Shown: positions 1,193 to 61,470 of the stretch, in pieces
Layout of the letters: each line of letters starts with the position of its first letter
Numbering within the stretch: position 1 is the first letter of the stretch
Assembly (NCBI GenBank): GCA_000002445.1
Contig: CH464491.1
Coordinates: forward strand, 4,512,001 to 4,576,000
Source: Trypanosoma brucei
Taxonomy: Eukaryota
Direction of reading: 5' to 3'
Length of the DNA stretch: 64,000 bases
The notes under the pieces: generated by a model
What the model was told of the DNA's origin: nothing
Seen by the model: the letters and a program-made list of their open reading frames with translations, nothing else
Database searches by the model: none
Translations under genes and position numbers: made by a program

Positions 1193-2135
1193 TTACATAC
1201 CACTTTCTTTAAACATCCAACCACAAATTTTACCAAATTCAAAATCCCATTTCTTTCCATCTGTTGCTGAAGCTTGTGTTTTCCCATAATATCTTGTACG
1301 GAACTTCCTTGTATCCAGCATTTTGTACCAAATAGGATTTTTTCCAATCAACTTTGCTTTCTCTTTCCATGCAATTGGTAGACCTTGAAAATGAATGAAT
1401 AGAGCATCTCCAACTTCTACACCATGCGGAATACAAATGAATCTCTCTTTATAATCCAATTATCCCATTAATCAACAAAACATTTTCACCCACAACTTCT
1501 TCCTGAATTGCTCTCCAAATTAATAAGGGTTTATAAATACTTTGCTCTCACCACCATTCATCCCTTTGAATAACTCTTCAAAGGCAAATTCAAATTTCTC
1601 AAAAATCCATACCATTGCTATTAAACCTCCACCAGTAAGATAGGGTTTTACACTTGGAGGTGATTTCAGTAAATGAGGTAACTTCTTGTTCTCTTCTTTC
1701 CTGTGCGCAACATTAAAAAAACAATAATTTCTTTGTACATGCTCTTTGTAATCTGAGTGCAAAATAAAGTCCAACTGAGGTACATAGCAGTCGGATGTTG
1801 CCATGAATAGAATTGTGGAAATCTTTTCTCTTTTAATATATCTTCTTAACTAAACTTATCTTCCATCCCTGCAGTATTTTGTATAAAATACTTTACTGCA
1901 TTCCCATACATTCTCCTGATCATAAACAATGACATCAGATCTATCCAAATGAATTACAATATCCTCATCACTCGCATTCTGCTTCTCTAAAAATTCCATA
2001 ACCCATCTAGGCCTTTTAACATGGCTATATAAACCTCCTATCGAAGTTTTAATAATTTCAACATTGCTTAGTTTCGCACTCAATATTTTTCTATATAATC
2101 CTTGAGTTATTGTCGTTGGAACTACAACTACAATA
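1193..2135 (-). pseudogene. GT31 (beta-1,3-glycosyltransferase/Galactosyl_T)-like subtelomeric pseudogene, copy 1 of 4
   Basis: Three consecutive minus ORFs (1856..2083, 1520..1804, 1193..1459) in different frames. Motifs: VVVVPTTITQGLYRKIL (RxxxRxTW-like region), IVIHLDRSDVIV (DxD-like), KPYLTGGGLIAMVW (PYxxGGGY-like). Paralogous to 17385-18135, 53147-53850 and 60703-61470. Annotators may call these ESAG-like; I could not verify the name. Confidence 0.45.
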
Positions 2136-3074
2136 ATTCTGGATTTTTATTGTCATCATCGGTTATGTTTGTCTTTGTTATATCCTCTTGAAGTGATATA
2201 GCACTTCGACACACTAAATGTAATATAACCAATAAATCTTTCAAGATACATAACTTTATGTCATAAAATACTTTAATGAATGAAAGGAATGTGTAAAACA
2301 TTTTTTGAATGTATATAAACTTGTACACTAAGTTTTTTAGTTGAAGAAACAGTGTTAACAAATATAAACAATATCTTTATATAGTTTAGATATGGGTTTT
2401 GAAAGAAATGCGCGTCGTGTCTAAAACTTATGTTTGAGCACACACTTGCGGTCCCTGTCTTAGAAGTTTGCTTCTGTCACGGCTAGCACCTCACACTATG
2501 ATTCTTTTGCTTTCACTTGCATTTATCGCATTTTTTAATTATGCATTTTTATGGTTATTACAGCAGGTAGGTGCACTATTAGTGGATACATACTGAGAAT
2601 TTTACTAATTTATACTGATAAATATTCTAAACATCGGATTTCATAAGGCCCTGATCGGAGTAGCTGTAATAACTACCGCACTGTTTTTGCTAGCATCATC
2701 TCCACCGCCGCGTCTCTCTATTATATAGTGAATCGTGGAGCACAACATTCTCCTGTATTATTTCTTTCTTTTTTACCTTCTGTCGCTGTTTTTATGGATA
2801 AATTGGAGTCACCAATTTGTCCTGCAATCCCTCTTTCCTTATTGTCCCCTCCATCTTATCTCTGTGTATGATGATTCCCATAGTAATGTTTATGTTTAAA
2901 ACTGAACATCTTTCACATTTTCACTTTCTCCTATTAATTATGTCTTTGTGCGTATCTTTTAATAACACTCTCAGTATTCCCATTCACTCTTTTACTCCAA
3001 CAATACCCTTGCCATTGTTTTAAATTCTTCTCTTTTGTTCAAGCTACATGGTCTTTACAGAACCTCCAATCTTC

Positions 3075-3150
3075 TTATATTAATAGTATGCACAAACTCA
3101 TAACACACTCCTACCACTATCATAATCATCATTATTATTACTGTTATAAC
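3075..3150 (-). repeat. 70-bp repeat element (minus orientation)
   Basis: ...actcataacacactcctaccactatcataatcatcattattattactg... is the reverse complement of the GTGTTGTGAGTGTG...TATTATAATAAGAG core plus TRR triplets. Confidence 0.55.
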
Positions 3151-3371
3151 CCTAAATCACTCCTAATATCCATAAAATTAACAAATGTATAAATTAGAGT
3201 AGCATTCTTTTTTCGCACCGCATCATCATAGTAATTTGCACTGACAAAACACTTCCATATAAATATTTCAAAAATACACATCTTCATCAAAAATTTTTAT
3301 AATATATCAAATTTTAACAAATCTTAATTATTTTCATAAAATTGAGCAAAAATACTTAAAATTATACAAAC

Positions 3372-9954: not shown

Positions 9955-10085
9955 CCATTTAGTCACCACAACCACCGCTCAAAATATTAAAATATTAGTA
10001 TATACACACTTACAACACACTCCTATTATTACTATTATTATTTATTATTTATTATTGATAATACTGTAATAATTCTAATTAATAT
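9955..10085 (-). repeat. 70-bp repeat element(s) (minus orientation)
   Basis: ...aatattagtatatacacacttacaacacactcctattattactattattatttattatttattattgataat... Confidence 0.6.
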
Positions 10086-10243
10086 CCATAGAATAGACAA
10101 AATAAATAAAATTATAATTTAACTTATTTTTCATACTATATCTCCTTACTACTTGATATCGATAGACACTATGATATATATTTTACTGTAATTTTAGATT
10201 TTACAGTTTTTGGTTATCCACATTTTGCAAAGAATTTACAAAA

Positions 10244-10259
10244 GTGTTAAAATATATTA
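10244..10259 (-). promoter_or_regulatory. VSG 3'UTR 16-mer (TAATATATTTTAACAC, 15/16)
   Basis: The plus strand reads gtgttaaaatatatta, about 150 nt downstream of the VSG D stop. Confidence 0.6.
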
Positions 10260-10400
10260 AATTTTATAAATTTTACCGAAGTCTATCAAGCACGAAAATT
10301 TCATATAACTTCATAAATTGAGAAAAAATCCATAAAGTGATAAAATACTGAAATTATACTGGTTTTATAAGGGAAGCAGTAATCAGAGCGAATTTTTTAT

Positions 10401-11931
10401 TTACAAGATAACTGGAGTCAAAGCATTTAATTTTTTTTGCTTTTTCATCCTCTTTATCTTTCCCACACTCCATACACAATGCTTTTTGGCATCCTTGTTT
10501 ACTGCCTCACATTCCGGTTGTGTGGTAATTTTTTCTGCAGTCAGATTTCCCATCTTTCCAGCCTGTTTCTTTATTTGCTTACTCTGCTGCTTTTTGTTTG
10601 TCTTTTTCACTTAGCATGCACCTTTTTTTTCATCATTTTATTCCTTATCCCATATGCAAGGTTTTCACATTTTTTTCCTTTGTTAAGCTTTTTTCATTAT
10701 ACTTTGGCTTCTGAGCTCTGATCACTTGAATCGGTGGACCCTGAATCCCTTCTGTTGTCGGATTCTGCGCTGCTTGGACTGTTAGGGCCGCACGTGGAAC
10801 AGGGTGCGCTCGCTTCTTCAGCGCCTTCATGCTTGCTTCAAGCGCATTGTGCCTTGCGATGGACTACTCTTGCTGATACAGTTCGCTAGGTCTCCTAGAT
10901 CGTCCAGCCCATGGATCTTGTCTGCGTAGTTGCTGGCCGCATGTACCGTATCTGGTGAATTTTCCACATGCGCCACTGCTATTTTGACCATCACGGTCGC
11001 TGCCGTGGATCACGCCATAGTAGCCATGGCTGTTTATGACCTTAATAGCGTTACGTATGTTGTGTGCTAGCTGACTCACCGCTGCCGAGGTTGCTTGGAA
11101 TACCTTGCGGTGAAGACAGTGGCCAAAAACTTCGCCAAACTCCCGTTTCCAGTCCGGGGCTGAAGCGTCTGTCCAGGCGTTGGTCATAGTCTGCTTTCGG
11201 AAGCAAGGTGTGGCTAGGTTGGCTCTGCTGTCCTTGACACATATACAGAACATTACCGCGGCTGCGCTCGTGGCCTTTTGGCCCTCACAGTCTGTGGTTC
11301 GCGAGTTGGTTGCACCATTTAACGCTTTGGTTTCATCAAAGGTGTTATCAGTGGCTTTGGCTCCGTAAAATTTTTGAATTAAGATCGCTTTCACGCTTTG
11401 TTTATTCTGTGTGTTTGCTGTTTCCTGATCAGCTGTTATCTGAGCTCGCAGCTCCACCGCTTCGGCCAGTGCTGTGGTTACGAGTAGCCAAGCCTGGTCA
11501 GCTTGCTCTGCGGTTAGTTTTCCTTGCCTCACGCCTTTTAATTCTGGTATAATGTTGTCTGTAGAGGTAAGCCGTTTGTGTGCCGAAATCCATGCTGTCC
11601 AGTGTGTCTTCCAGCTGTCGTCTATTTCCCCTGGAGTTAGTGAATAGTTTTTGGCCACTTCTGCCCAGTCAGATGTTTCTTTTCCCAGGGCTAGTTTTGT
11701 GAACCATGAAGGTGGTGCGAAGGTTAGATTGAGGTCCTGCAAAGATGCCAAGCTATCGTCCTCGTCGACCGCCCGTTTCGGCAACTCGATGTCCGCATTG
11801 GCTGCTGCGCCTATAGCACACAAATGGTTGAAATAGATATGGTTCTCCGTTGGATCAACGTTTCCAGCGGCGTGCTTTGTTGCTAAAACAGCAATGAACG
11901 TCGCTGCTGCTATCTTATTGAGCGAAATCAT
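10401..11931 (-). pseudogene. VSG: VSG (D), type-B-like N-domain ORF (355 aa) with frameshifted C-domain
   Basis: ORF 10864..11931 (-) has a signal peptide (MISLNKIAAATFIAVLATKHAAG) and the ...AAAVMFCICVKD... motif. C-domain pieces lie in two other frames (10645..10830, 10401..10610). Confidence 0.7.
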
Positions 11932-14076: not shown

Positions 14077-15850
14077 TTAAAACAGAAAAACCACAAAGGC
14101 AGCAGCCATGAGAGCGAATTTATTATTTACAAGACAACAGGAATCCTTGCAAGTATTATTTTCCCATTTGCAGCCATCTTTCTCTCCTGTTTCTTGTTTT
14201 GCTTCTTTTCCTGCTTCCTTTTTTGCATTCTCGCCCAATGTGCATTTTCGGCTATTCCTTCCATCCTCTTTAAATATGCACCCCTTACCCTCAAGGTTTT
14301 TGCATTTATTTTGGTCATCTCCTGCTGCACTGCATTCTTTTTCGGCTTCTTGTTGTTTTAGTTTACTTGTGTCCCCCGTTTTTTTCGGTGACTTTGCTGT
14401 ACCGTCCGCGACTGCCGCTGACAGTGCTGTTAGGTGAAGATTCGATTCCAATGTTTCTTTGAATGTTTCTATTCTGGCTTCGGCAGCTACTGTAGCTTGT
14501 GCTTCTTTTTCGTATTTCTCAGCTGCTCCTGCTGCATTTTGGAGCTCTGCTAACCACGTCGGGAATGCTATTGTATTCGCGCCGCTTGTTAATGTTGCGC
14601 AGTCGCCTTTTCCTCCTGTGGCGTCGCCGTCGCAGTTACCTGCACCGGCGTTCGAGTCCGGGTGCCCTATATATCCGATTGTGCCATCGTTTCCTTTGGG
14701 TTCGTATATCAAGCTGTTTAGCTTGTTCGTCAGGTGTCTGAGTTCCTGCGCTGTCGCTGTTTGATGTGGTGCCGCTTCGCTTTTGCAGTTCTTTGCTATG
14801 ACGTCCCAGGCTGTGATAGCTGTGTTTTCGTTCCAGTCTGCTTGCGCGGTTGTTGCGGTCTTGTAGCATGCGGTGTTAGCGTTGTCGGATTTGCTTCCTG
14901 ACGCACACAGACAAGCTATAGTAATGCCGATCGAAAGTTTGGCTGAAGTCCCGCCCGTCGCTTTTGTTCCGCAGTGCGCCTGGCTGTCGCTTCCTGTGCC
15001 TAGTAGTTTCGGTTCTGGGTCTGTCCCTTCACCGCCTTACACTGCCTTTTTTAGGGCTGTAGCTATTTTCTGTTTTTTTGGCTGCAATGCTGCCCGCATC
15101 GAGTAGCTTCGCCTTTGTTGCTAGCAACTTGTTTAGAGTTGTGTTTAAGTTCCGGCTTAGCTGCGTTGGGTCTGTGGCTGCTCTTTTGAGTGCCGTTTGG
15201 CCTGCAGACGGCAAGCTCTTGAGGTAAGTGGATGCCGCTATACATTCTGCGCGACCGCTTCCACGGCACTTTTCCGTTATGTCGGTGTCCGGTGGTTGTT
15301 TCGACTGTTGTTCGGGTGGTGTTACGGCAAGTTTTTTTATTGCCAAGTAGTCACTTAGAATCAAAGATATGTGAGCAGCGGTTTCGGCTGCATTCTTTGC
15401 GTTTTTTTCATGCCTGTGGTAGGTCTTTAATGTTTTCTGAAGAGACAACTGCGGTGCACAATATGCCAAAGTTTTTCCTGTTTAGACCTTTTGCTGGGCC
15501 GGTTGCGGAGGCCGGTCTGAGCGACGACTGCAAGAGCGCTGCCATCGATATGGCTAAAGCAACCGCCGATTTGGCTATATCTCCTGGTTTCATTTTGTCG
15601 TTTCCCGTTGATGTCGTGGATATCCTATTGCTGCGGGTTGCGTGCTGTTGTTGTGCTTCTTGGTAGTGGCTCCCCTTTGATTCTTGAAGGTTGTGAAGTT
15701 TTTGTAATGCCACTTTCAGGTTCTTGTTTGTCGGCTTGCAGATTACCTTTTCTGGCCTTGTGCCCAGTTGCGGCCCCGCTGCCGTCTTTTGTTATCCTTA
15801 GCTTTCCTTCTCCAAGAGGTGTCAGTGGCAAACTCTGTGTATCCGAATCC
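14077..15850 (-). pseudogene. VSG: VSG (E): intact C-domain with GPI signal, badly fragmented N-domain
   Basis: ORF 14077..14712 (-) ends ...DGCKWENNTCKDSCCLVNNKFALMAAAFVVFLF*. N-domain pieces lie in at least 4 frames (15029..15469, 15408..15713, 15625..15831, 14636..14869). No clean signal peptide is present. Confidence 0.65.
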
Positions 15851-16199: not shown

Positions 16200-16216
16200 T
16201 ATTCCAATCTATAGAA

Positions 16217-16256
<40 letters not shown>
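16200..16256. repeat. (CT)n(AT)n compound microsatellite
   Basis: ctctctctctctctctctctatatatatatatatat. Confidence 0.9.
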
Positions 16257-16257
<1 letters not shown>

Positions 16258-16699
16258 GCATCCACATACCTCCTCAGATTTGATTCTGTAATTATTACAA
16301 AAATATCACACATATCTTGTGCTTGAAAAATCATGTTGTATGGCTTCTAATCTGCTATATCTGTTGCTGAATACTTTCCTGTATACTCCTTGTTAGTAAC
16401 AACGTAAAGTCTTTGTTTGGCCAGTATACGAGGTGCTGTTCCTGATTCCTTCAAAAAATTGTATTCTGTTTTGTTTCTTTCGCTCACGATTTTTCAATTT
16501 GTAGTTTTCTGGAACTTCCTCTGTGCCCTGCTCTGGTGGTTAAGTAGAGTGCTCGTCGCAGATAGTAAAAGGGTCGATCCCCGTGGGCGGAAAGTGTTTA
16601 GCCTACGCTAAGGATGGATATGCCTCAACGTGGCGCTAGGGTTCAGGAACAGAAAAGAAATAAACTGGGAAGTCAAATGTTCCATCCAAACGGCGGCCG

Positions 16700-17108
16700 C
16701 AACACCGGATATGGAGCGACCGCTCCGTGGGGAGAGAACCATTACTTAGTGTTCCACCACGGTTCAGCACCCTGCTCAAGTGGGGGAACCAAAATCCCTG
16801 ACTTAACCTCCGTCCGGAGAGGAAGATGGATATGGTAAACATGGTTCAGACGCAAAGGAGGAGAGTATGGAATCGAACGGGCACCAAATGGAGAACGCTA
16901 CCCTAAACACGCGCACATGCAGTCGCCCACCGGTGGGTATCAATTCTATGAAAAACAGCGGGTTTTAGTGGGTAGGAACGCCGGTACAGCGTTGAGGCCC
17001 ACACTACCATGCCCTCGTGGTGTGGTGTGCGTAAATGCATTTCCTCCTACCCTCGTGTGGACTGACTGCATGGTCCCGACAGTTGCTCGAGAGAAAATCA
17101 AAAAAAAT
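16700..17108 (+). mobile_element. RIME/DIRE-like degenerate retroposon fragment (~0.4 kb)
   Basis: The 5' end (ggcggccgcaacaccggatatgg...ccgtggggagagaacc...cagcaccctgctcaagtgggggaaccaaaatccctgac) aligns loosely with the 5' end of the ingi at 35866 (gccggccacctcaacgtggtgccagg...cagtaccccgtatcatctggggaagccaag). It ends in an A-run (gagaaaatcaaaaaaaatg, ~17095-17108). It is GC-richer than its surroundings. Confidence 0.35.
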
Positions 17109-17384
17109 GTCTTATGTTTTTGCTACACTTGGAGAACTGCATACCCGTAAAGCTGACACTCAAGTATTACAACTCCTTTGTTTCTAAAAATTAACTTCTA
17201 CACAAGCATTACCACAAAACACTACATAATAAAAATTCCATTTCCAGCTACCAAACGCTTATGTTTTAAGTTCCCCCAAATTGTTACCGTAAATTGTTTT
17301 CTTTCCAAGTATTCATACCAACTAATATTTTTAACAATCAATTTAACTTTATCTTCTCAAGAAATAGTCTGTCCTGGTAAATGA

Positions 17385-18135
17385 ATAAACGAAGCCTTTA
17401 CAGTCACCCAACTATTGGGAATAGTAAAAAATATCTCCTCATAATTTAATCCAATCATTCCTCTCCTCAAAACAAATCTCTATCCAACAGCTTCTTCCAA
17501 CACAGCACTACATATTAGCAACGGTTTGTAAATACTCTGCTCTGACTACCATTCACCACTTCCCTTTAGTAACTCTCCAAATGCATATTCAAACCTTTTA
17601 AATGCCCAAACTCTTGCGATTATATTTCCACCACTAAGATAAGGTTTTCCACTTGGAGTTGATTTCAGTAAATGAGGTAACTCTTTATTCTCTTCTTTCC
17701 TGTCAGCCACATTAAAAAACCAAAAACATCTCTGCACATGCTCCTTATGTTCTGAGTTCATAAGCAAATCCAACTGAGAAACATAACACTCTGATGTTGT
17801 CATGAATATAATAGGGGAAATATGCTTCTCTTTTACTATATCTTCTTAACTAAACTTATCTTCCATCCCTGCAGTATTTTGAATAAAATACTTCACAGCA
17901 TTTCCATATTTTTCACGGTTGGATATTATAACATCACACTTATCAACAGTTATTACAATATCCTCATAACTTGCATTCTGTCTTTCCAAAAACTCCATAA
18001 CCCATCTAGGTCTTTTAACATGGCTATATAAACCTCCCATCGCAATTGTAATAATTTCAACATGGCTTAGTTTCGCAGTAAATATGAGCCTATACTATCC
18101 TTGAGTTGCATGAGTTTTAACTACAACAACGAACA
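17385..18135 (-). pseudogene. GT31-like subtelomeric pseudogene, copy 2 of 4
   Basis: ORFs 17546..17803 and 17846..18040 (-) are paralogous to copy 1 (GGLYSHVKRPRWVMEFLERQNAS..., ...KPYLSGGNIIARVWAFKRFEYAFGELLKG). Flanking nucleotide stretches are identical to copy 1 (ttaactaaacttatcttccatccctgcagtattttg). Confidence 0.45.
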
Positions 18136-18284
18136 CTCTTGGTTTCTTAGTATAATTCACTGACACTTTGTTTATGTTTTTCATCATCTTGATGAGATGC
18201 AGCGCTTAAACCACACTAATAGTAAAACAACAGTATAAGTGTATAAATATCATATTTCCTATTCTAATCTACTTTAAAACATTG

Positions 18285-18345
18285 AGTCTGTTGTGAGTTT
18301 GTGTATACGAATATTATAGCAATAGTGTTTGTGATGAAAACCGAA
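18285..18345 (+). repeat. 70-bp repeat element, degenerate (plus orientation)
   Basis: ctgttgtgagtttgtgtatacgaatattatagcaatagtg. Confidence 0.45.
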
Positions 18346-22043: not shown

Positions 22044-23560
22044 TGGATGTAAGGAAAAGCAGGATCTTAACGCTCTTAGTAACGCTCTTAGTAACGCTGG
22101 CGCTTTTAAATGACGCCCTCAAAGCCTTAGAAAATGTAGCGGAAGACAGCAACCAGCCAGAACGACAGGCTTTGTGCTCTATAATAGAGCTCGGTGGCGA
22201 AAGATCAAAACTTCTAGACTAGGCACCAGGAGGAACTTCAGACTTGGATGAGTTGCTATCAATCAACATGAAGCTCGCGGAAGACACAAGGCTGCAACAC
22301 TTCAGGGACGCAACCGACCCGACTAAGCCACGAGACACAACCAAACAAGCGCTACCCCCGAATACGAATTGGAATGAACGCTGGCCGGACTGGCAAAAAG
22401 CCGCTAACCCTCTGTTGGAAAAAGGCGAAATCACGGAAAAACTTAAACACTTTACTAGACAAGTTAAATGATAAACAAAAACATGCCGTCCGACTCCACA
22501 TATTCAAACTAGCGGAAGAAGCGTCCAGGGAGGCCAAGCAAGCAGAACAAGAACATCCAGCAGGCGACTTCCTAACAGAAGACGACCTACACAAAGAGCT
22601 AAACAAAGCAATTTACGGTGAAGAAACAGAACCTGCTGACGATTTCAGCAATTGTAAAACGTTTGGCGACAGCCCTGCCAGTGACAGACAAGCGAACTGC
22701 GGCAGTGCCAGCGTAGCAGGCAAAACCAACACGGCATTCGCAGCATTCGTCTGCGTATGCGCCAAAGACAACACCAACGGTGGAAACGAGGGAAAAGCCT
22801 GTGCAGGTTCTGTAACTCTGAGCAGCACCTGGAATCCGGGCACCAACAATAACCCATCACCCGCAACGTTAGCAGAATTAAGAAAGCTATGCAATATAAA
22901 GGCTGAAACACAGCTAACAGTAGCAGATCTTCAAAGAAGGATCGCAGATGTAACTGGATTACTCCGCTACACAACCCAAGCAACGCACCTCGGCACTTTC
23001 CTGACTACAGCCTGCAGCGGCGCCGCAGCCAGAGGAGTGTGTGTCACATACAAGGGCATCCACGGCCACGCTGCGGACCCTAAGAAGGCAATAAACTGGC
23101 TAGCTGAACTAGATGCCACGGCGAAAAAAATACACAAACACGAACAGGCGGTCTAAGCTAGGAATAGGCTAGCTCAGCTACTAGCAGTAAAAAAGCAGCT
23201 TGCTACGGACGTAGACTACCTAACAAGAACAATAGAAACACCGCAGCGACGCCCCGGACTGCAACAGCAAGCGGAAGAACAAAAAAACAAAAACCAAGCA
23301 AGAGCACAATCAATCTGCGACGAACACAAAAAAAGTAAAACTAAATGCGAAAATACAGGTAAATGCAAATGAAAAGGAGAGGATGAGACCAAAGGGGAAT
23401 GCAAATCTAAAGAGGGGAAGGGCAGAAAAGCTAAGGAACAGAGGGAGCTGTGGGAACAGTCGCTAGAGTAAAATGCAAAGTAAAAGTGGAGAAAGATTGC
23501 AAATATCTGGATTTTCAACAGTAAGGAACAGAGTGAAAATATTCCAGTTTTCTCGTCAAT
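22044..23560 (+). pseudogene. VSG: VSG (G), paralogue of VSG H; in-frame stops and frameshifts
   Basis: The ATG at ~22044 encodes MDVRKSRILTLLVTLLVTLALLN...ERSKLLD* (stop TAG at ~22218, where the paralogue has CAG). ORFs 22244..22471 and 22374..23156 continue the N-domain (…FAAFVCVCAKDNT…). The C-domain runs 23160-23560. Confidence 0.7.
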
Positions 23561-29269: not shown

Positions 29270-29700
<431 letters not shown>

Positions 29701-35874: not shown

Positions 35875-37023
35875 ATGCCGGCCACCTCAACGTGGTGCCA
35901 GGGTCCAGTACCCCGTATCATCTGGGGAAGCCAAGAGCCAGCAGCGTTCCCTTCATGGGGAACACTGCTGTGCTCCGGCTACGGCATCATACAGCACAGG
36001 GATCAGCAGCGTCTTGCTGGGACACCGTCTTTCATTTGTCGGTCCCTGGGCACGTGCCAGTGTGCCATCAGCAGTATCATCCGCACTAAGATGCTGCTGT
36101 CCGGTGATGTGGAAGAGAATCCCGGCCCGTCTTTGCGCGGGATGCAGTGGAACTGCGCCGGGCTATCTCAAGGAAAGAGATTAGCACTCCACAAAACCCT
36201 TGTTGATGAGCGGATCGCCTTTTGTCTGTTGAGCGAGACAAGGATGACGCCTGAAGAGGCGGCTTGCTTTAGCGTTGCTGGCTACCAACATCACGAAATA
36301 GCTCGTAACTGCAAAGGAGGTGGTGTATCAATACAAGTGAGGGAGGACCTGCCAGTCGAGACCGGTATGCCCGTTATTGGTCGCATTGAACAAGTGCATG
36401 CAACAATTCACCTTGCACGTGGAACGGCGCTGACTGTCACGTCGGCATACATCCCACCAAAACACACCTTCACGGCAACTGACCTAGATACGCTTCTGAC
36501 GACTGACGGTGCCCAGCTCATCGGTGCAGACGCTAACGCACACGCGTTGGCATGGGATCGCGCGAGCCCACCAAATACCAAGGGTGAAACCCTCACACAG
36601 TGGTGCATTGACAACCAGTTTCTGGTCTGCAACACTGATGAGTGCACCAGGTACGCGCGCCACCACGGGGAGTCCACCCCTGACGTGACACTGTCAAGGA
36701 ATTGCACAGTGTACACGTGGACATCGCTGTATTCTCCCGATAGCGATCACCATCACATATTTTTCGACGTTATCGTTGGAGACGACACAGATGCACTGAG
36801 TTGCCCGCGGCTTCGAAAGCCCATGTACGGATGGCTAAAAGCTAACTGGAGGAATTTCCGTCTCAAGGTTGACGAGCTCTGCAGGAAAATTGGTAGAAAG
36901 AAGAACGTCAACACCCTGAAACAGAAATTGAGCTCCGCCATCCGCATTGGACACCTGAGCTCGCGAAACTCGATGAAGAGATCGCTGGATGCGGACCCTC
37001 CCACCGAAGGAAAAAATTGGTAG
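35875..37023 (+). pseudogene. ingi ORF segment: 2A peptide (DVEENPGP at 36106-36129) plus APE endonuclease domain
   Basis: ...KMLLSGDVEENPGPSLRGMQWNCAGL...IAFCLLSETRMTPEE...SAYIPPKH... Confidence 0.75.
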
Positions 37024-37464
37024 CCACGCGTAAGCAAATCCTGGACCGTACCACAAAGAAGAGATGGAGCACGCTATGCTCCAGACTTGCGGTGTCGGAC
37101 CGCTGCAGTTGGCACATTGTCAAGAAGGTATATGCGCCACGACCACTAACCACACCGGCTGTACTTGTTGATAACGCGGCCATCACGGACTACCGTCAAG
37201 CTGAGAGGTTCAGTAAACTGTACTCGTCCCGCGCAAGAAGGCACCCCAACTCACACCCACCGGCACCAATAAAGACGATAGCGAGTGAGTTCAGTCCCAT
37301 CACGATGGCTGAACTACGGAGATCGATCAAACTGCTACCGAGTGGATCCGCAGCCGGACCTGATTGCTTATACAACGAGGCACTGAACATCTCGGTAAAA
37401 CAGCGCTGAATGTTGTTCTGAGGCTATTCAATGAGAGCCTACGAACGGGAGTCGTGCCGCCTGC

Positions 37465-38829
37465 ATGGAAGACTGGTGTTATCATCCCCATCCTGAAGGC
37501 CGGAAAAACGCGGAGGACCTCGATTCTTACAGGCCTGTGACACTCAGGAGCTGTCTCTGCAAAGTCATGGAGCGCATAATTGCGGCGAGGCTTAGAGACA
37601 CTGTTGAGTCCCAGCTGACGCCACAGCAATCAGGCTTTCGCCCCGGATGCTCAACGCTCGAACAACTCCTGCACATCCGCGCTGCCCTCTGCCGTCCCAC
37701 GCACCAATCTCGTACGGGTACTGTATTTGTCGACTACGAGAAGGCATTCGATACAGCAGACCACGACAAAATTGCGAGGGAAATGCACAGAATGAAGGTA
37801 TCACCCCACATTGTGAAGTGGTGCGTATCATTTCTGAGTAACCGAACTGGCAGAGTGAGATTCAAGGAGAAGCTTTCCAGAAGCAGAACATTTGAGCGAG
37901 GAGTGCCACAAGGAACTGTCCTTGGCCCAATGATATTCATTATTGTCATGAACTCGTTGAGCCAACGCCTTGCAGAAGTGCCGTTACTGCAGCACGGATT
38001 CTTTGCAGACGACCTAACGCCACTTGCGAGGCACACAGAGAGGGATGTCATCAACCACACGCTACAATGCGGCCTCAACGTGGTGTTACAGTGGTCAAAA
38101 GAGTACTTCATGTCTGTCAACGTAGCGAAAACAGAGTGCACACTCTTCGGGTGTATAGAGCGCCACCCCCTTACATTACAACTGTACGGCGAAAGAATAG
38201 GAGCCGACAGGACACCGAAGCTTCTAGGAGTAACATTCCAGTGTCTGCAGGGGATGGCAACACATGCGGCCGAAACGAGACGCAAGATGGACTTCAGACT
38301 ACTGCAGATAGCAGCCATCTCAGCTTCTACATGGGGGCCAAGACGACAAGTACTGAGAGCTTTTTATCTAGCACTCGTACAGGCACACACCATGTATGGC
38401 ATTGAGGTATGGTACTGGGACGCTTCGGAACGAAGTCGCAACCTCCTTGCAGCAGCACAACACAAAGCCAGTCGCATCATAGCTGGCATACCGCATGGGA
38501 CGCGCAAAGAGGACTCTCTGCTGGAAGCAAACCTCCTGCCACTCAAGACGGCCACTCTTGTGCGCAGAATGAAATTCATGCTGATGTGTGAGTCACGAGG
38601 CGGATGTTTGCGGCGTAGTGCTGAGGAAGTATACCACAGCAAACACCCAGTCAGAGCCCTGCATTCCCGTATCATGCGGTCCTACCCCCACCTCCGCATT
38701 GAGCCACGCGAGCACCCACTAGAGACATCGACGCTCCGCCACAGCTGCCGACCGCTATTTCACACGCAGATAAAGCCTGTGTGCGCTGATGACCCTGACG
38801 ATGTAAAAACAAAGGGTTCCAAAAAGTGA
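37465..38829 (+). pseudogene. ingi ORF segment: reverse transcriptase (FADD box)
   Basis: ...YRPVTLRSCLCKVMERIIAARL...GVPQGTVLGPMIFIIVMNSL...GFFADDLT... Confidence 0.75.
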
Positions 38830-39088
38830 ATTGCACGGCATTTTGCACGGAGGGGGATAGGAGCCACCGCGGCGAGAGCACTACGAATTGTAGACTGATG
38901 GATCCGTCTCCCTCGGTGAGAAGCCCGGAGCAGCTGCACTGCTCTATAGAAACAACACGCTGATTTGTGCACCCAAAACTGGAGCAGGGGAACTCTCATG
39001 CAGTTAAAGAGCGGAATGCGTAGCATTAGAGATAGGACTGCAACGGCTGCTGAAATGGCTTCCGGCATACAGAAGCACACCGAGCAGG

Positions 39089-40912
39089 TTGTCCATCTTC
39101 TCTGACTCGCTGTCAATGTTAACAGCACTGCAGACAGGCTTTCTAATAGTGTCGGACCCAATTCTAAGACGACTATGGAGGCTTCTGCTTCAAGTTCAGA
39201 GAAGGAAGATGCGTATCCGACTGCAATTTGTATTTGGCCATTGTGGCGTGAAACGGAATGAGGTTTGTGATGACATGGCCAAAAAGGCCGCTGATTTACC
39301 ACAGTTGCGAGACACATGGATAACGGACATCATTGCTTACGCGAAGCGAGTGCTTAGGTCGGAAGAAGTCCATGAGAACACTCATAGGTTTGGTATTACA
39401 GGCAACCACTTTCCAACAAAAAATAAGGAAGAACTGACGAGGGAAGAAGAAACGGCACTGGCACGCTTTCGGGTTGGGTCTTCAAGACACTATGGATGGA
39501 TGTTGCGAAAGATCAACCCGAGTGTGCCTCCACAGTGCCGATGGTGTAACCCGCAACATGCAGCGATAGGGCCAACAATACAAACAACCACACCTGTTGC
39601 GACACGCACTCTTCAGAGAACCTCCGAATCCACCAAATGTACGGAATGTGATGCCACATACCAATGCCGCTCGAGTGCTGTAACGCACATGGTAAACAAA
39701 CATGGCTTTGTGCGAGCTGATGCCCTCCGGAGGATCAAATACGGCGATGCAAGACCTGCAGTGGACATCCCCCCGGAGCCCCTTCCAGTGGTGGCGATCG
39801 TTCCTCTACCATCGAGCACACGAGTCCCGATGAGACCGCAGGTGCTTCATTGTACCCTCTGTGCCTACAAATTCGCAGTGCCAGGCCGACTATTACACCA
39901 CCTTAGAACAATACATGGCATAGGCAGCGGTAGTTGCCGCGTGAAAAGGGGGCGAGAAAACGAAGACTCAGTGCAAGGAGATGGTAGAGCCCCAGCAGCG
40001 CCAGCCTCTCAGGATACACGGAAGCTGCCGTTTCAATGTGACCTGTGCGAGGCGAGCTTCGGTACACGCTCTTCCCTGTCACTACACAAGAAATTCAAAC
40101 ATAAGAGCATAGTGACGGAGGACGGTACCGTGGTGGTGGTGCAAATCCCTCGTAAGCGTGCCCGTGAGGGAAACGTTGACGCCCCGGGGAAAGGCGAGGT
40201 GCAGTGTGGTGTGTGCCAAAAAGTGCTCAGTTGCAGGGACTCCCTCATCCGACACTGTAAGGCTTTCCACAAAGGTGAGGGAGTCGAGCTTAAATGCAGC
40301 AATAACACAAAATTGTGTGCCACTGATTCCCCGCATACAAACACATCCATGTTGGTTTGCCCGACATGCGGAAGGCAGTGTGCTAGCAAAACTGGCCTCA
40401 CCCTACATCAAAAGAAGATGCACGGTATGAGAGTAGAGCGCGCTGTTACCAGCCAACGCGGCAACTGCGAAGAAACGTCGCTGCACTTGATGAGCTGTCC
40501 CGGTTTGAAGGAGTTACGTGTCAGGTTTGCGGTAGAAGGTGTGTGTGTGCAGGATGTATGTTTCTTTAAAAGGCTGGCGCAATTTCTCATTGCGGTTGAA
40601 CGGAGCCGGCCGCAGGTGAAGTCTTCCCCTAATGTAACAGTCATACAACCCACTCTCCCTTCTGCAACTTCCCCCCTTATTGCCGACTGTGGAGCTAGCA
40701 GGAAAAGCACCGGACGCAGGAATAGTCCAGACACCCTCAGAGACAGAGGGGGTATGCAATCAACAAGCAAAAAAACAGAAAGAGGGGGAGAGAATAATAA
40801 ACGAATAACAAAAATCAAAACAAAAGAATTGCTAATTGACATCTTTGGGAGAGTCCAGGGTGGGGGGCTTCTCGCCCCATCTGCTGTATTCCGTTCAAAT
40901 GCGGAGCTATAA
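39089..40912 (+). pseudogene. ingi ORF segment: RNaseH-like/C-terminal domain with 5 C2H2 zinc fingers
   Basis: CTECDATYQCRSSAVTHMVNKHG, HCTLCAYKFAVPGRLLHHLRTIHG, QCDLCEASFGTRSSLSLHKKFKHK, QCGVCQKVLSCRDSLIRHCKAFHK, CPTCGRQCASKTGLTLHQKKMHG. Confidence 0.7.
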
Positions 40913-51204: not shown

Positions 51205-52715
51205 TTAGAATGCTACCGAACTCATAAAATCAGCAGCCATACTCAGACCAAATTTCTTCTTGACTAGAAAACTGGAAGAGAGGCATTCTGGTGGGTCAAG
51301 TTTACCTTTGCCGTCAACATAATCTATCCATCCACATACTGCTTTTTCACCCGGTTTTACATCCTTGTTTTCCGCTTCACATGCTTGCTTAGTTTGGTGT
51401 TTACTGCAATCTACCCCGTTACTTGTCTCTCCTGTTGCTGCTGCTGTGTTTTCTGTTCCTTGTTTAGGTTTGCATTCCTTTTTTAGCTGTCGTAGTCGCA
51501 GTGATCTTTTGGGCATTGTGCAGAAGTTTGGTTTTTCGTTACGCACTGCTCCTGTTTGCCTAAACCATTGTAATTACCGTGTTCCCCTTTTGGTGCATTG
51601 AGCTCAGCACTGACAGCTTGTTTGTAAATCGCCCATGTAGTCGTTTGGAGGGTCTGAAGTTGTATTTTTTATGCATGTTCCCGTGCCTGGGCTGCTGCAC
51701 TGTTGCGTAGTTTGTTCGCAGCATCGACTAGTCTGTTTACCCATGGTATGCCGCCGCCGGTGGTTTCCAGCTGCATTTTGTAATTTATGCACATACCTTG
51801 TCCAGAGCTAGTGTCGCAGCCGCCGTCAGTGTGCGGGCGGCCAAATGTTGATGTTGCTGTCCCCGATGCGCTCGCCTTGGCCGCTTGGTTACATAGCAGA
51901 GCTTCGAACGCCGCTACCTTGGTGTCCAATATGCTGGCCGTGATTAGCTTCCTTTTTTTGTCCGTTTTGCAGGCTGTGATTAAAGCGTCGTACGCTGTTT
52001 TTGCACCTGTACGCCTTGACCCCGAGGCAACGCTGGTCGGCGTTAACCCGGCTCGGCATGTGCCGTCACTGTCTTGTGCATCCTGTGGTACGCACAAGCA
52101 AAGTAAGTCTAATGCTACATACTTGCCGACGTCGGCATGACCGGCTGTTGTCCCGCAGTTGTTTCCGACGGTGGTGGCATCTAGCCCGTTGGCGTCGAAT
52201 TCAGTCTCGTCTTTACCGAAAAGAGCGTTTTTAATTAAGGTTTTTGCCTCTGCTGTTGTTTCTTCCGCTTCTTTGTTTGTGGTTCTGTATTCTTGTGCTA
52301 GTTCAGTCGCTTTCGTGAGCAATGTTTTGATGTTTTCATTGGCTGGCGTTCGGACGTTTTTGTTCTTAAGTCTTTGATACTTGACGGTTGGCGGCGTGCC
52401 CTCTGGTTTGTCCAGCTTTGCTAATGTTGCCTTCGACGCCGCGATTTCGGCTTTCTTTTCACCCGCTTTTGCTTCCGTCAGCTCGCCGTCTTTGTGTTGT
52501 ATGTAGCTGTCCGTGGCTGTTGATATGTTTAGCATTGTTATTTCCGCTACCACTGCGTCCGCCGTTGAATTTTCTGTCGTGACAGCTATTGACGAAACAG
52601 AGTCCTTCAGAGCCAGTATGTCGCACAAAACCCTGAATTCTGCGCCGTTGTCATTTTTTGCACTGTAAATTGTGCCACACAGACCTATCAGTGCCAATAT
52701 GAATTTGTAGATCAT
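51205..52715 (-). pseudogene. VSG: VSG (N): type-B-like N-domain (348 aa) and complete C-domain/GPI signal separated by a frameshift
   Basis: ORF 51669..52715 (-) begins MIYKFILALIGLCGTIYSA and carries ...LDLLCLCVPQD.... ORF 51205..51546 (-) reads ...DCSKHQTKQACEAENKDVKPGEKAVCGWIDYVDGKGKLDPPECLSSSFLVKKKFGLSMAADFMSSVAF*. Confidence 0.7.
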
Positions 52716-53146
52716 CAGGTGCTATTACTTCTTTTGTATTCCTTAATTTGTTAAGCATTGAAAGGTATGGAGTTCTGACTGTTTCCTGATTCTGCCTATT
52801 TTTTCAAAAGTTCTGAATTTATTTGACCTCTCTGATGATTGATAACATTATTTATAGTGCTTATAGCTGATGATTTTAAACGATATATGTATTGGTTCTT
52901 CTACTGTCAACAGCTGTCTGGCGGCACTGAGACGGTGGTTCCTTTGTTTGCAGCTGCCACACTTTTTTGATTTAAATAATTCCCCCTTATTAAACGGTTT
53001 ACCACGTACTTCCAGATCCTCAAAATCTTATTCCTTCCGCCTATAGAATATATTTTAATTTTTACAAAATCACTGGTTATAAATTTCTATTTTAAAAGTT
53101 CTTTATACCAAGTAAAATTTCTTACAATCAATTCCACCCCTTCTTG

Positions 53147-53850
53147 TCATGCAATATGCTGCCCAGGAAAATGAATGAATGGCGCCTTTTCGACTTCTCC
53201 ACTATGTGGAATAGAAAAAAATCTCTCCTCGTAATCTAGCTCAATCATTCCTCTCTTCAAAACAAATCTCTGTCCAACAGCTTCTTCTGTAATCGCACTC
53301 CATATTAGCAATGGTTTGTAAATACTCTGCTCTGACCACCATTCCCCACTCCCCTTTAGTAACTCTCCAAATGCATATTCAAACCTTCTAAATGCCCAAA
53401 TTCTGGCTATCAAACCGACACCACTAAGATAAGGCTTTCCACTTGGAGGCGATATTGGTAAGTGGTGTAACTTTTTATCTTTTTTTTCTGCGTCAAACAT
53501 TGACAAACCAGTAGCATCTCTCCACATGATCTTTTACTATATACTCCTCGCTAAATTTTTCCTCATTAGCTGCACTATTCTGTATAAAATATTACACACC
53601 AGTATTATACTTCTGTTCATCAGTAACAATAACATTAGACCCATCTACAGTTATTAAAATATCCTCATCACTTGCATTCTGACTTTCTAAAAATTCCATA
53701 ACTCATCTAGGCATTTTAACATGGCTATACAAACCCCCCATTGTAATTGTAATAATTTCAACATGGCTTAGTTTAGCATTCAATATGGTCTTACACCATT
53801 GTTGAGTTGCATGAGTTTGAACTGCAACCAGAAACAATTTAGTCTTCTTA
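53147..53850 (-). pseudogene. GT31-like subtelomeric pseudogene, copy 3 of 4
   Basis: ORF 53147..53527 (-) reads ...PPSGKPYLSGVGLIARIWAFRRFEYAFGELLKGSGEWWSEQSIYKPLLIWSAITEEAVGQRF.... Upstream pieces (…VAVQTHATQQWCKTILNAKLSHVEIITITMGGLYSHV…) lie in other frames. Confidence 0.45.
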
Positions 53851-54809
53851 GCATCACTCTCTGTTAAAATTCCCGTTGTATCTCCTCAAAGTGATATTAG
53901 GCATGAAAACAATGGGTATAACAGTAGCTGTTATAGAAAAGTTGTGGAGATAAAAAATTTCATTTACTAATATATGTTTAAAATTTGAAAGGGTTATAAT
54001 TAAAATTACTAACTTTAATAAAATTAATCAGTTATATCACTGGGGTTGTGGCAAAAAAAAGATATTTATATATAAGTAATTCCTTCTTATTGTTATGATA
54101 TCTCTGTTTAGTGGTTTATACTTAGTTTCTGCAGCTTATCTTTTAACGGGCATATTGTTCTATTGGTTTGTAAATTAGCTTTACCCATAGGAGCTTCCAT
54201 ATACTACGTGCATTACGCTGTTCGTTGCATTCATATTTCCCTTCCGTGCATTGTTTTAAGAGTTGCAGTAGTTAGGTGAACCGACTATTTCAAATATACT
54301 AATAGTCACAGGTTTCCTGTTATAACACCCCATCGACCATGTTTCACCATAAGACCCTGCCACCTCAGATTTATTAGCAACCGCTGCTGAAGTTAATACC
54401 ATTATCTATGCAGTAGCAGCTATCCACTTTTGGTAGCAGTGTATGGCACAAAATTCTGCTGTGTCATTTCTTCCTGAGTGTCACTTACACTGTCATTTAA
54501 CTCTATTTTTTATTTATCTCGTGTTTTGCACCTTCCTTTGCTGTTAATAGAGCATTGACTCTAATTGGATTCTACATTAAACTCTGTTTTTTCCTCATTG
54601 TCCATTCTATCATATCCTCGTGTTAGAAGTTGCGCATATGGCATACTCATTTCTTTCTCTATTTTTCATCGAATTTTCTTTAATAATATTCCTTTTCAAA
54701 TCTTGCACTCTTACACACCTAATCTGCCTCACTCACTCACTCCCATTACATTCTCATAATTGTTAAAATTTCTTTTATTTTGAGTGTCCATTTAGCCTTC
54801 ACAGATATA

Positions 54810-54890
54810 CTCATTATAACATTAATGTATACACACTCACAACACTCTTCTGTTGTTATTATTATTTCTATCACTCTTGTAGTCATGATA
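54810..54890 (-). repeat. 70-bp repeat element (minus orientation)
   Basis: cattaatgtatacacactcacaacactcttctgttgttattattatttctatcac. Confidence 0.55.
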
Positions 54891-59256: not shown

Positions 59257-60589
59257 CAGTCGCTATTTGCTAGCTTGGTGTGAGTTAGCAAAAAGAGAAA
59301 AGACTGTAGTGATATCTTCGACTGTAGCTGCGCTCCTTTTAAGTATTAACGGATCCAAAAGCCACGGTTGTATGTTTATCACAAATAACATTTATATGAA
59401 GCTTTATGGTCGCCGTGTTACAGACAGAGTCGCTCGAAAAGTGTCGTTTGCAAAGCATAAAAATTTTATGAAACCAACTTTCAAGAAGATGTAAATGTTA
59501 TTTTTCAAGAGCACTGCCACATTATTTTAAATCCGTAACGGTCTGTATCTATTGTATATATACTCCTCCTCCACACGTCCAGTCCTTCACTCCTTTAAAA
59601 ACAGCGTACATTTCTATACCTAAAAGTACAAACTTCATGACTTGTCGGTGATGCTGCTTGGTGGTAATTATATATTACATACGGGTGAAACAACCCGGTA
59701 CAGCTGCTGTTTCTCGCTGGTGCGGTTAGTTTTCCGTTTCTTCTATTTATTATGGCTGACTTGTGGTCTTGATTCAGCTTCCTTTCATGCTGCGACATTT
59801 TAATACCCTACTTTAAATGAGGTTGACTCTTGATCTTTAGATGTGGCATTCGATCACTGAATAGTGTTAACTTCTCCTCTGTACAACAGTATGGAATTAG
59901 TGGAGTTTTGCTTTCAATTCTTTTAACTTCATCAAAATTCTCACTAAGTTTATGTTAGCGAGACTTTAGATTTATTTTACTTCTTTATTCTTTTGCATCC
60001 TCGGTCATTCAATAATAATCATTGTTTTAAATTCTCCTCCCAATAATATAATATTGTTCACCACCAAGTGTTGGTCATTATTATTATATCCTAGAAAAAG
60101 AAGAACTTGGTGTTGCATCAATTTAATAAATCCATCCCTCCCACTTCTACTGTATCTGCTTATATATTTTGTGGTTTTTCACAGCTGAATATTAGGATTC
60201 ACTATCATATTGAAAAATGCAAACTAATATTTCCACTGTAAAAACTATTTTACAGTGAGCTATAGAGAATCATCTTCTTATCATGATGTATTTTTTTGTT
60301 CTTTTGCTATCATGTACTCTTTTTTTATTATTTATTTTCTTTTTTTGTTTTCATATACTGCTTTACTTCCTGCAGCTACATCAGCGATGATATGTGTCCT
60401 GTGCACTGGACTCTGCCTTTCCGTGATTGCTTTCCCCACCTTTTTGTGTATATTTATGACAGTCTTAGTATTTGTATAAAAAACTACGCATATTACATAT
60501 CTTCTCCCCATATCTTACTTCATTTAACATCCCAATTCACTCACTTATTCCCATTAAGCTTCGTCAATTTTTTAACTACCTTTATTTGA

Positions 60590-60660
60590 GTTATGCCTTT
60601 ACTTTCCACTGCTCTTATTATAATATAAGTATATACTCACAACACATTCAACGTTTCATA
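60590..60660 (-). repeat. 70-bp repeat element, short (minus orientation)
   Basis: ctcttattataatataagtatatactcacaacacattcaacg. Confidence 0.4.
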
Positions 60661-60702
60661 TTAGATTAGAATATTAAATATGATATTAAAAAACTTATAC
60701 TG

Positions 60703-61470
60703 TTGTTACTAAATTTAGAGTGTTTATGCTCAATATCTATTCATGAGGACACAAAGGGAAATATAACAGAAAATGAGCCTACGAATCCCAAAGTGTTTCT
60801 GGTTGCAGTTCAAACTCATGCAACTCAAGGATGGTGTAAGACCATATTGAATGCTAAACTAAGCCATGTTGAAATTATTACAATTACAATGGGGGGTTTG
60901 TATAGCCATGTTACGAGACCGACATGAGTTATGGAATTTTTAGAAAGTCAGAATGCAAGTGATGAGGATATTGTTATTCATTTGTATGTATTTGATGTTA
61001 TTGTTAGTGACGGAGAGAATTTTGGGACTACTGTGGAACACTTTTTAAAAAAGACTGCAGAAAATGAAGAGAAGTTTAGTAAAGAGGATATAGTAAAAGA
61101 TCATGTGAAGAGATGCTATTGGGTTCTTTAAAGTCGGTTAAAGGAAAGAAGAGAATAAAGAGTTACCTCATTTACTAAAGCCATCCCCTAGTAGAAAACC
61201 TTATCTTAGTGGTGGTGAATTAATTGCAAGAGTCTGGGAATTTTAGGAATTTGAATATGCATTTGAAGACTTATTGAAAGGGAATGAAGAATTTTTGTCA
61301 GAACAGAGCATCCACAAACCTTTACCAATATGGAGTGCGATTAAAGAAGAAGCTGTTGGACAAAGATTTTTTTGAAGAGAGGAATGATGGAACTAGATGA
61401 TGAGGAGATATTCTCTTATATTCCTAGTAGTTGTTGAGTTGGAAAGGCTACATTTATTTATTTTCCTTAA
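60703..61470 (+). pseudogene. GT31-like subtelomeric pseudogene, copy 4 of 4 (plus strand)
   Basis: ORF 60703..60927 (…KVFLVAVQTHATQGWCKTILNAKLSHVEIITITMGGLYSHVTRP) and ORF 60931..61131 (MEFLESQNASDEDIVIHLYVFDVIVSDGENF…). It then reads ...RKPYLSGGELIARVWEF.EFEYAFEDLLKGNEEFLSEQSIHKPLPIWSAIKEEAVGQRF in another frame. Confidence 0.45.

Follow-up and report, generated by a model that had tools for sequence, protein, structure and literature searches.

ESAG3 pseudogenes in a silent VSG array

The window, a stretch of 64,000 nucleotides of Trypanosoma brucei DNA analysed in full, includes four diverged copies of one pseudogene family, each adjoining a VSG. They lie among silent VSGs in a subtelomeric array of a T. 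brucei-group genome. The original prediction of a single repeated family beside VSGs was correct, as pairwise blastn among the copies gives 70-79% nucleotide identity with E values of 1e-45 to 1e-180. The sites had been placed rightly, but the true extents are somewhat larger. The copies, numbered c1 to c4, are as follows:

1181-2235, minus strand: ESAG3 pseudogene c1, ESAG3 residues 11-367; five frameshifts; stops at residues 142, 243 and 363
17190-18239, minus strand: ESAG3 pseudogene c2, residues 11-360; two frameshifts, seven stops including G142* and W305*
52962-53885, minus strand: ESAG3 pseudogene c3, residues 31-367, extended by tblastn to 53963; two frameshifts, four stops
60673-61672, plus strand: ESAG3 pseudogene c4, residues 1-367; three frameshifts, five stops

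A consensus protein derived from c1-c4 is 83% identical to ESAG3 at 100% coverage (E 7.7e-167), and the protein cluster that it matches has members carrying the name ESAG3. Taken singly, the copies are 60-70% identical to the ESAG3 protein. When ESAG3 was used as a tblastn query, residues 1-368 were covered at all four sites, with per-copy E values of 1e-40 to 1e-150. These matches identify the family as ESAG3 (Fam53 of the cell-surface phylome, ESAG3 sensu stricto), of which all four elements are pseudogenes, and the caveat originally attached to the family, that it might be annotated elsewhere as ESAG-like, was well placed. An HMM scan in six frames found no fifth ESAG3 copy in the window. 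One candidate, at 34581-35540 (tblastn E 0.29, HMM E 0.028), was rejected as an ordinary VSG fragment after inspection of its translation and an hhalign probability of 1.3%.

Pseudogenes of ESAG3 in the VSG arrays of T. brucei have been annotated from the genome project onward. The family is not new: ESAG3 has been reported to be present in VSG arrays also (PMC3607257), and subtelomeric loci contain it throughout, with pseudogenes making up most of the copies (PMC6152948). The ESAG3 genes of the bloodstream expression sites (e.g. CAQ57304, AAA63784) belong to the same family, are colinear over their full length with the window copies, and have the DXXD, glycine-loop, E/Q and His positions in the same places. 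Unlike these genes, the window copies are all disabled and lie in silent arrays beside VSGs. In expression sites, ESAG3 lies between ESAG5/4/8/2 and precedes the 70-bp repeat block (PMC2567434), whereas the window copies are not so placed. A more distant homologue is GRESAG3, the chromosome-internal part of Fam53 that is conserved across trypanosomatids, which shares 31-35% identity with ESAG3 over approximately 300 residues; the window copies are far nearer to expression-site ESAG3.

That all four copies are frameshifted had been predicted and is the case, each carrying 2-5 frameshifts and 3-7 in-frame stops (5-9 disabling lesions in total). The catalytic residues D110, D113, G215, G216, W242, E244/Q245 and H297 are all still encoded in c1. 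Changes at these positions are G216N and W242* in c2, D113N and G215V in c3, and D110Y, G216E, W242L and H297Y in c4. Such uneven loss of the catalytic set is the pattern expected of decaying pseudogenes; with their disrupted reading frames the window copies cannot encode a working ESAG3 enzyme, and they belong to the family as pseudogenes rather than as functional members.

Several lesions are held in common: G142* by c1 and c2, W305* by c2 and c3, W90* by c3 and c4, and an 82-nt deletion (approximately residues 148-175) by c3 and c4, the last also being present in an independent copy on chromosome 7 of T. b. equiperdum. Because inactivating lesions are common to several copies, these were dead before they spread; the common TGG-to-TGA stops could have arisen independently. 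The independent T. equiperdum OVI assembly contains c4 with 100% identity and matches c3 without a difference over the stretches that align, so that the lesions of c4, at least, are not sequencing errors. The retention of every listed catalytic residue by c1 is the one point in favour of functional ESAG3 or GRESAG3 genes broken only through assembly errors, an explanation to which we give practically no credence in view of this base-for-base identity, the number of lesions in each copy, their occurrence in more than one paralogue and the loss of 82 nt from c3 and c4.

Glycosyltransferase class of ESAG3

The family had originally been described as GT31-like on the basis of short peptide motifs. 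All of the quoted peptide strings are found in the translations, and the DxD-like and PYxxGGG-like segments are true catalytic motifs, namely the DXXD pair D110/D113 and the glycine loop G215-G216 (10.64898/2026.01.27.701950). According to this preprint, ESAG3 is a UDP-glucose-specific, Mn2+-dependent, retaining GT-A enzyme that O-glucosylates VSG at Ser/Thr and assembles as an 18-mer; the preprint also lists E244/Q245 and H297, and the active site was superposed residue by residue on that of LH3.

A Pfam scan of the four-copy consensus, which had been proposed as a check, revealed no match to Galactosyl_T (PF01762) or to any other family at E<=10, nor was Galactosyl_T matched by any of 39 Fam53 members at E<=0.01. 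The sole Pfam family matched is GT_PLOD (PF25342), by 12 of the 39 members with a best E value of 3.2e-10; ESAG3 alone matches it at E 0.005 and 16.5 bits, which is under the Pfam cut-off of 27 bits. A Fam53 profile run against the PDB identified LH3 at 7e-10, in an alignment that pairs the DxxD and YLNxGG blocks. This match needed a profile search, phmmer with the consensus as query returning only noise from the PDB sequences. With an AF2 model (pLDDT 90.1) as Foldseek query against the PDB, LH3 chains occupy ranks 1-10 (E 5e-9 to 8e-8); LH3/PLOD3 and mimivirus R699 are followed by generic GT-A and nucleotidyltransferase folds, and none of the top 50 entries carries a GT31 description.

As modelled, ESAG3 is a GT-A enzyme nearest to the glycosyltransferase domain of LH3/PLOD3, not a GT31 enzyme. 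The human LH3/PLOD3 domain (PDB 6FXR, 6WFV; PF25342) and mimivirus R699 share the GT-A fold with ESAG3, and the DXXD Mn2+ site, YLNxGG glycine loop, D/E-Q pair and C-terminal His align, although sequence identity is merely about 15% and the window copies are dead. GT31 (PF01762) and the beta3GT-like GT67 enzymes of T. brucei resemble ESAG3 in having a GT-A fold, metal dependence and an Asp-based motif, but no relationship by sequence or by nearest fold was found, and the DXXD motif of ESAG3 is not of the GT31 type. The glycosyltransferase half of the original assignment stands. The further idea of a previously unrecognised GT31 (beta-1,3-glycosyltransferase, Galactosyl_T) pseudogene family draws on the DxD-like and glycine-rich segments present in all copies of what is truly a GT-A protein; against the Pfam and Foldseek results, a metal motif as in LH3 and the 83% identity to ESAG3, it is very improbable.

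70-bp repeats and VSG neighbours

The 70-bp elements and VSGs adjoining the copies are:

589-1044, minus strand: VSG A, B-type, N-terminal part; ATG at approximately 1021; 159 nt downstream of c1, the remainder lying beyond the window
3070-3147, minus strand: degenerate 70-bp repeat, co-oriented with c1 and approximately 830 nt upstream of it
14080-15593, minus strand: VSG E, B-type, a pseudogene in several frames; approximately 1.6 kb (about 1596 nt) downstream of c2
18289-18325, plus strand: 70-bp core, inverted with respect to c2, approximately 30-40 nt from the ESAG3 start; serves VSG F (19190, plus strand)
51208-52715, minus strand: VSG N, B-type, N-terminal and C-terminal domains; 246 nt downstream of c3
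54810-54873, minus strand: 70-bp repeat, co-oriented with c3 and approximately 850 nt upstream of it
60608-60648, minus strand: 70-bp core, inverted with respect to c4, approximately 28 nt from the ESAG3 start; serves VSG P (59256, minus strand)
61852-63171, plus strand: VSG Q, B-type, frameshifted; approximately 179 nt downstream of c4

A co-oriented 70-bp repeat is found upstream of c1 and c3 only, and not of three copies as had been claimed. The proposed wiring of all four into cassettes, in the order 70-bp repeat, copy, VSG, holds for these two and fails for c2 and c4, where the core is inverted. Both of the latter mark divergent strand switches, the only two in the window, and their junctions of inverted 70-bp core and ESAG3 pseudogene are homologous to each other; no inverted core is present upstream of c1 or c3 (p ~0.6-0.7). 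Since they are located just 5′ of a co-oriented VSG, c1 and c3 fall within the interval from 70-bp repeat to VSG that is copied into expression sites by gene conversion, and by position these two may be carried there.

The same order of 70-bp repeat, ESAG3 pseudogene and VSG is known from two expression sites: in BES7 an ESAG3 pseudogene is located 3′ of the 70-bp repeat, and in BES15 ESAG3 pseudogenes occur among additional sequence lying between 70-bp array and telomere (PMC2567434; Hertz-Fowler et al. 2008). Those pseudogenes are telomeric and reside in expression sites, and the likeness to c1 and c3 is one of arrangement.

All four copies are upstream of a co-oriented B-type VSG. They had been described as immediately upstream, which is apt for three of them (159-246 nt) but not for c2, with its gap of about 1.6 kb. 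At an independent T. brucei-group locus (L002) an ESAG3 copy also precedes a co-oriented VSG, with a gap of approximately 175 nt, and the spacing is 159-246 nt in four of the five cases (four in the window plus L002). Co-orientation at four of four is marginally non-random at most, with a binomial p of ~0.06, or ~0.03 when L002 is added. In a head-to-tail VSG array nearly any intergenic element has a 70-bp repeat on one side and the next VSG on the other. The independent samples comprised this locus and one T. congolense contig, the latter uninformative.

Mosaicism and origin of the copies

Similarity between the copies ends at the ESAG3 borders, and homology is found in neither the 5′ nor the 3′ flanks. 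A stretch near 1850 and 17860 that had been taken for conserved non-coding flank lies inside the ESAG3 frame (QNTAGMEDKFS*, approximately residues 131-142), while the true flanks are unrelated. Within the borders, identity between c3 and c4 swings from 95% to 68% between adjacent 150-nt segments. The three alternative quartet topologies are favored by 28, 24 and 25 informative sites, which are spatially clustered (39 runs observed, 52.2 expected; p=0.002). This patchwork of the aligned copies points to gene conversion, the copies being mosaics of one another; identity along the gene may vary in part through uneven past selective constraint, which does not account for the rank reversals between pairs. 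Spread by retroposition was considered and dropped, there being no poly(A) tail at the 3′ end of c1 or in the spacers after c2-c4. Rfam and tRNA scans of the whole window were empty.

We favor, with a probability of roughly 0.9, the explanation that these are ESAG3 pseudogenes which were already dead, were carried along as passengers of recombination, and are reshuffled by segmental gene conversion in the silent VSG array. The array copies had been inactivated by the time they spread, and would have been left behind by recombination between expression site and array. Segmental conversion among them would keep them similar and reshuffled. On this view each copy would be a separate block of homology, with recombination breakpoints at its borders, and would not duplicate as a unit with the VSG beside it. 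This picture of passengers and homology blocks is drawn from five copies rather than from a genome-wide survey.

The pseudogenes might instead be kept because they are useful, as upstream homology tracts that offer an alternative to the 70-bp repeats, steering VSG gene conversion and seeding inversions of the array. The sharp end of homology at both borders, the mosaic structure, the identical junction at both divergent strand switches and the coincidence of BES recombination breakpoints with ESAG3 loci (PMC2567434) are what such a role would lead one to expect. The same pattern would be expected, however, if they were neutral relics in a region of frequent recombination; the junctions seen number only two, and such a block stands before merely four of the approximately 18 VSGs of the window. 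We regard retention for use as unlikely. More doubtful still is the fuller proposal of working recombination substrates, in which blocks of approximately 1 kb, 160-250 nt before some VSGs, would exchange stretches of sequence, both among themselves and with expression-site ESAG3, offer an alternative to the 70-bp repeat as upstream conversion boundary, and, where joined to an inverted 70-bp core, either mark the divergent strand switches or give rise to them. If this were true, ESAG3 pseudogenes could bias the choice of the silent VSGs that are activated.

It is similarly doubtful that pseudogene and downstream VSG form one cassette unit that duplicates whole, with the pseudogene a true component of the co-transposed region. 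Such a unit would fit the position of all four copies and of that at L002 directly upstream of a co-oriented VSG with a spacing that is close in four of five cases, the B-type of VSGs A, E, N and Q, and the ESAG3 pseudogenes between 70-bp repeats and telomere in BES7 and BES15. Yet the ESAG3-to-VSG spacers have no detectable mutual homology (p 0.13-0.85) despite the 70-79% identity of the pseudogenes, the upstream spacers likewise have none, and the copies are themselves mosaic. The four VSGs show no significant pairwise similarity, while VSG G and VSG I, a comparison pair from the same window, reach 73% identity. With homology stopping at the borders, and no relationship among the downstream spacers or among the VSGs, the data do not support co-duplication of an ESAG3 pseudogene with its VSG, and the original suggestion to that effect is contradicted.

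The finding is real but ordinary, as both ESAG3 pseudogenes in VSG arrays and the glycosyltransferase activity of ESAG3 are already known. The family assignment is corrected from GT31 to an LH3/PLOD-like GT-A, and the cassette wiring is looser than earlier claimed. Small regularities are placed on record, namely the spacing of 160-250 nt to the VSG start, the mosaic copies and the identical junction at both divergent strand switches; should these hold genome-wide, they would have a bearing on how the silent VSG archive is rearranged.

Four ESAG3 pseudogenes in the array

Comparison of the window with itself bore out the four related copies of the original prediction, revealing segments with a pairwise identity of 70-79% across 0.4-0.9 kb (E 1e-45 to 1e-180), the existence of which is far beyond chance. 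All of the peptide strings originally quoted were found in the frame translations. When a large protein collection was searched, the consensus translation matched one cluster (83% identity, 100% coverage, E 7.7e-167), whose members carry the name ESAG3 (expression site-associated gene 3) and come from T. brucei brucei and T. b. gambiense. This match identifies the four elements (c1 to c4), at the level of sequence, as ESAG3 pseudogenes, and the earlier caveat that the family might be ESAG-like was thus correct. Protein-to-DNA alignment with frameshifts allowed provided the extents and lesion counts listed here, the predicted frameshifts being present in every copy (2-5 each).

ESAG3 pseudogenes in the window
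1181-2235 (-): c1, five frameshifts, three in-frame stops
17190-18239 (-): c2, two frameshifts, seven in-frame stops
52962-53885 (-): c3, two frameshifts, four in-frame stops
60673-61672 (+): c4, three frameshifts, five in-frame stops

No fifth copy was found in the window by a six-frame HMM scan; a weak candidate at 34581-35540 proved to be a VSG fragment. In the independent assembly of T. equiperdum OVI (L001), c4 is 100% identical, as are those parts of c3 that align, so that the lesions of c4, at least, are not sequencing errors. Within c3, ~53272-53401 of the window spans 129 nt vs 78 nt in L001 (15812-15890), with both sides 100% identical, a discrepancy due either to an indel in the pseudogene or to a difference in assembly.

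Glycosyltransferase class

The original assignment to a glycosyltransferase stands at the level of the fold, but not at that of the family, GT31. The Pfam scan of the consensus translation gave no match whatever, even at E<=10, and hence no Galactosyl_T/GT31 signal. An exhaustive HMMER search with ESAG3 yielded 46 relatives; 12 of the 39 aligned members match Pfam GT_PLOD (best E 3.2e-10), ESAG3 by itself scoring 16.5 bits, which is below the 27-bit cut-off. Against the PDB, the family profile matched the glycosyltransferase domain of human LH3/PLOD3 (E 7e-10), and the aligned blocks (...DGsDt.F vs LH3 ...DSYDVIL; rYLNaGG vs RFLNSGG) coincide exactly with two motifs of the prediction. For the AlphaFold2 model of ESAG3 (mean pLDDT 90.1), the top ten Foldseek matches in the PDB are LH3 chains (E 5e-9 to 8e-8), followed by mimivirus R699 and then by generic GT-A and nucleotidyltransferase folds, with no GT31 enzyme, by entry description, among the top 50. 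According to the experiments of a 2026 preprint (10.64898/2026.01.27.701950), ESAG3 acts on VSG as a retaining GT-A O-glucosyltransferase that depends on Mn2+ and is specific for UDP-glucose; its key residues (DXXD site D110/D113, glycine loop G215-G216, E244/Q245 and H297) superpose on LH3.

Position relative to VSGs and 70-bp repeats

Using Pfam scans of long ORFs, the VSG 3'-UTR 16-mer and the 70-bp repeat core, we find that the window is a typical silent VSG array, in which ~18 VSGs, genes and pseudogenes together, are arranged as four directional arms.

Array arms and co-oriented 70-bp repeats
1 to ~18.27 kb (-): minus arm
18.29 to ~41 kb (+): plus arm, ending in an ingi retrotransposon (35854-40909)
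~42 to 60.65 kb (-): minus arm
60.67 kb onward (+): plus arm
3070-3147 (-): 70-bp repeat co-oriented with c1, ~830-850 nt upstream
54810-54873 (-): 70-bp repeat co-oriented with c3, ~830-850 nt upstream

The ingi-type non-LTR retrotransposon (+) is near-complete and has ORFs for endonuclease, reverse transcriptase and RNase H/zinc finger; it truncates VSG K (34131-35540), and the convergent strand switch (~41-42 kb) follows shortly after it.

As predicted, a co-oriented VSG, of the B-type, lies downstream of every ESAG3 pseudogene (4/4), the gap between ESAG3 end and VSG ATG being 159 nt for c1 (VSG A), ~1.6 kb for c2 (VSG E), 246 nt for c3 (VSG N) and ~179 nt for c4 (VSG Q). The long c2-VSG E interval contains a 660-bp GC-rich block (16480-17140; 51% GC vs ~38% around it) which occurs once in the window, is adjoined by a (TA)n(GA)n microsatellite (~16215-16260) and gave no tRNA or Rfam match. 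Its sole similarity, 24 nt at 87% to the ingi 5' end (E 0.035), suggests that it may be a degenerate retroposon.

Three copies had been placed downstream of a 70-bp repeat in the same orientation; this is true of two, c1 and c3. At c2 and c4 a 70-bp core lies ~30-40 nt from the ESAG3 start but is inverted, being the upstream repeat of an opposite-strand VSG (F and P, respectively). Inverted core followed by ESAG3 pseudogene thus forms a homologous junction at both divergent strand switches (18254-18325 and 60608-60672), and since the 70-bp repeat has lost its (TAA)n portion at this junction, the breakpoint lies inside it. Our literature search found no mention of such an inverted-repeat junction at array strand switches, though it may appear in Marcello & Barry 2007 or Berriman et al. 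2005. Upstream of VSG J, a 70-bp repeat carries a perfect (TAA)77 tract of 230 nt (29409-29638), which exceeds every other triplet run of the window by a wide margin; elsewhere in the array each 70-bp repeat is a single degenerate unit.

The independent T. brucei-group sample for this arrangement is one locus (L002), on T. b. equiperdum chromosome 7, which is arranged as at c1 and c3: a 70-bp repeat (+), a small VSG fragment, an ESAG3 pseudogene (+) truncated at aa 74, and a VSG (+) ~175 nt on.

ESAG3 pseudogene at the independent locus
9989-10784 (+): T. b. equiperdum IVM-t1 chr7, CM010678.1 ~237.9 kb

A 95-aa ORF of this pseudogene is annotated as a hypothetical protein (DPX39_070011900). 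In T. congolense IL3000 (CAEQ01000364.1, 9968-10912), on a 12.6 kb contig without an ORF of at least 200 aa, we noted a sequence resembling ESAG3 (40% identity over aa 52-360), consistent with the published ESAG3-like copies in T. congolense subtelomeres.

Co-orientation in 4/4 copies has a binomial p of ~0.06 (~0.03 with L002 included). In a head-to-tail array most intergenic space lies between a 70-bp repeat and the VSG that follows it, so that an intergenic element of whatever kind would probably be located there; as regards chance, the positional claim is weaker than the existence of the repeats. More striking, with n=5 copies, is the tight spacing of 160-250 nt between ESAG3 and VSG in c1, c3, c4 and L002 (4/5). 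No genome-wide count of ESAG3 spacing or orientation relative to VSGs was found in the literature search; the same two papers may contain one.

Spread of the copies

The unit had been proposed to duplicate together with its VSG. Homology between copies ends at the ESAG3 borders: no similarity to one another or to the rest of the window was detectable in the spacers upstream, in those between ESAG3 and VSG, or in the remaining flanks, and VSGs A, E, N and Q gave no significant pairwise matches, which argues against joint duplication. The non-coding flank thought to be conserved at ~1850 and ~17860 codes for part of ESAG3 (QNTAGMEDKFS*). VSG G (pseudogene, 22272-23153) and VSG I (intact, 470 aa, 27466-28914), 73% identical over 233 aa, stem from a recent local duplication, and neither has an upstream ESAG3 pseudogene.

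Inactivating lesions are common to different, cross-cutting pairs of copies.

Features common to pairs of copies
G142*: c1 and c2
W90* and, by multiple alignment, loss of an 82-nt stretch present in c1 and c2: c3 and c4 (the deletion also in L002)
W305*: c2 and c3
Inverted-repeat junction: c2 and c4

Identity between c3 and c4 falls from 95% to 68% between adjacent 150-nt segments, and informative sites for the three quartet topologies (28, 24 and 25) are spatially clustered (39 runs vs 52.2 expected; permutation p=0.002). From these shared lesions and the mosaic signal we conclude that the copies were dead before they spread and have exchanged segments, a pattern that indicates gene conversion among them.

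ESAG3 "is also in VSG arrays" (PMC3607257), and pseudogenic ESAG copies are prevalent in the subtelomeric arrays (PMC4766357). According to Hertz-Fowler et al. (PMC2567434), BES7 has an ESAG3 pseudogene 3' of its 70-bp repeat, and the extra sequences of BES15 include ESAG3 pseudogenes; for BESs 2, 4, 7 and 15 they count an ESAG3 pseudogene among the sequences from 70-bp array to telomere. Earlier work has therefore already recorded the family and the fact that it is pseudogenic, as well as its occurrence in arrays and, on occasion, its location between a 70-bp repeat and a VSG. Overall, the original observation is real and its interpretation partly right (a glycosyltransferase-like ESAG, VSG-adjacent and co-oriented), the GT31 family and the three-copy 70-bp claim (2/4) being wrong and co-duplication with the VSG unsupported. 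ESAG3 loci coincide with BES recombination breakpoints (Hertz-Fowler et al., PMC2567434). The reading we favour, by inference, is that the ESAG3 pseudogenes of the array are passenger relics that behave as discrete blocks of homology in a highly recombining region.
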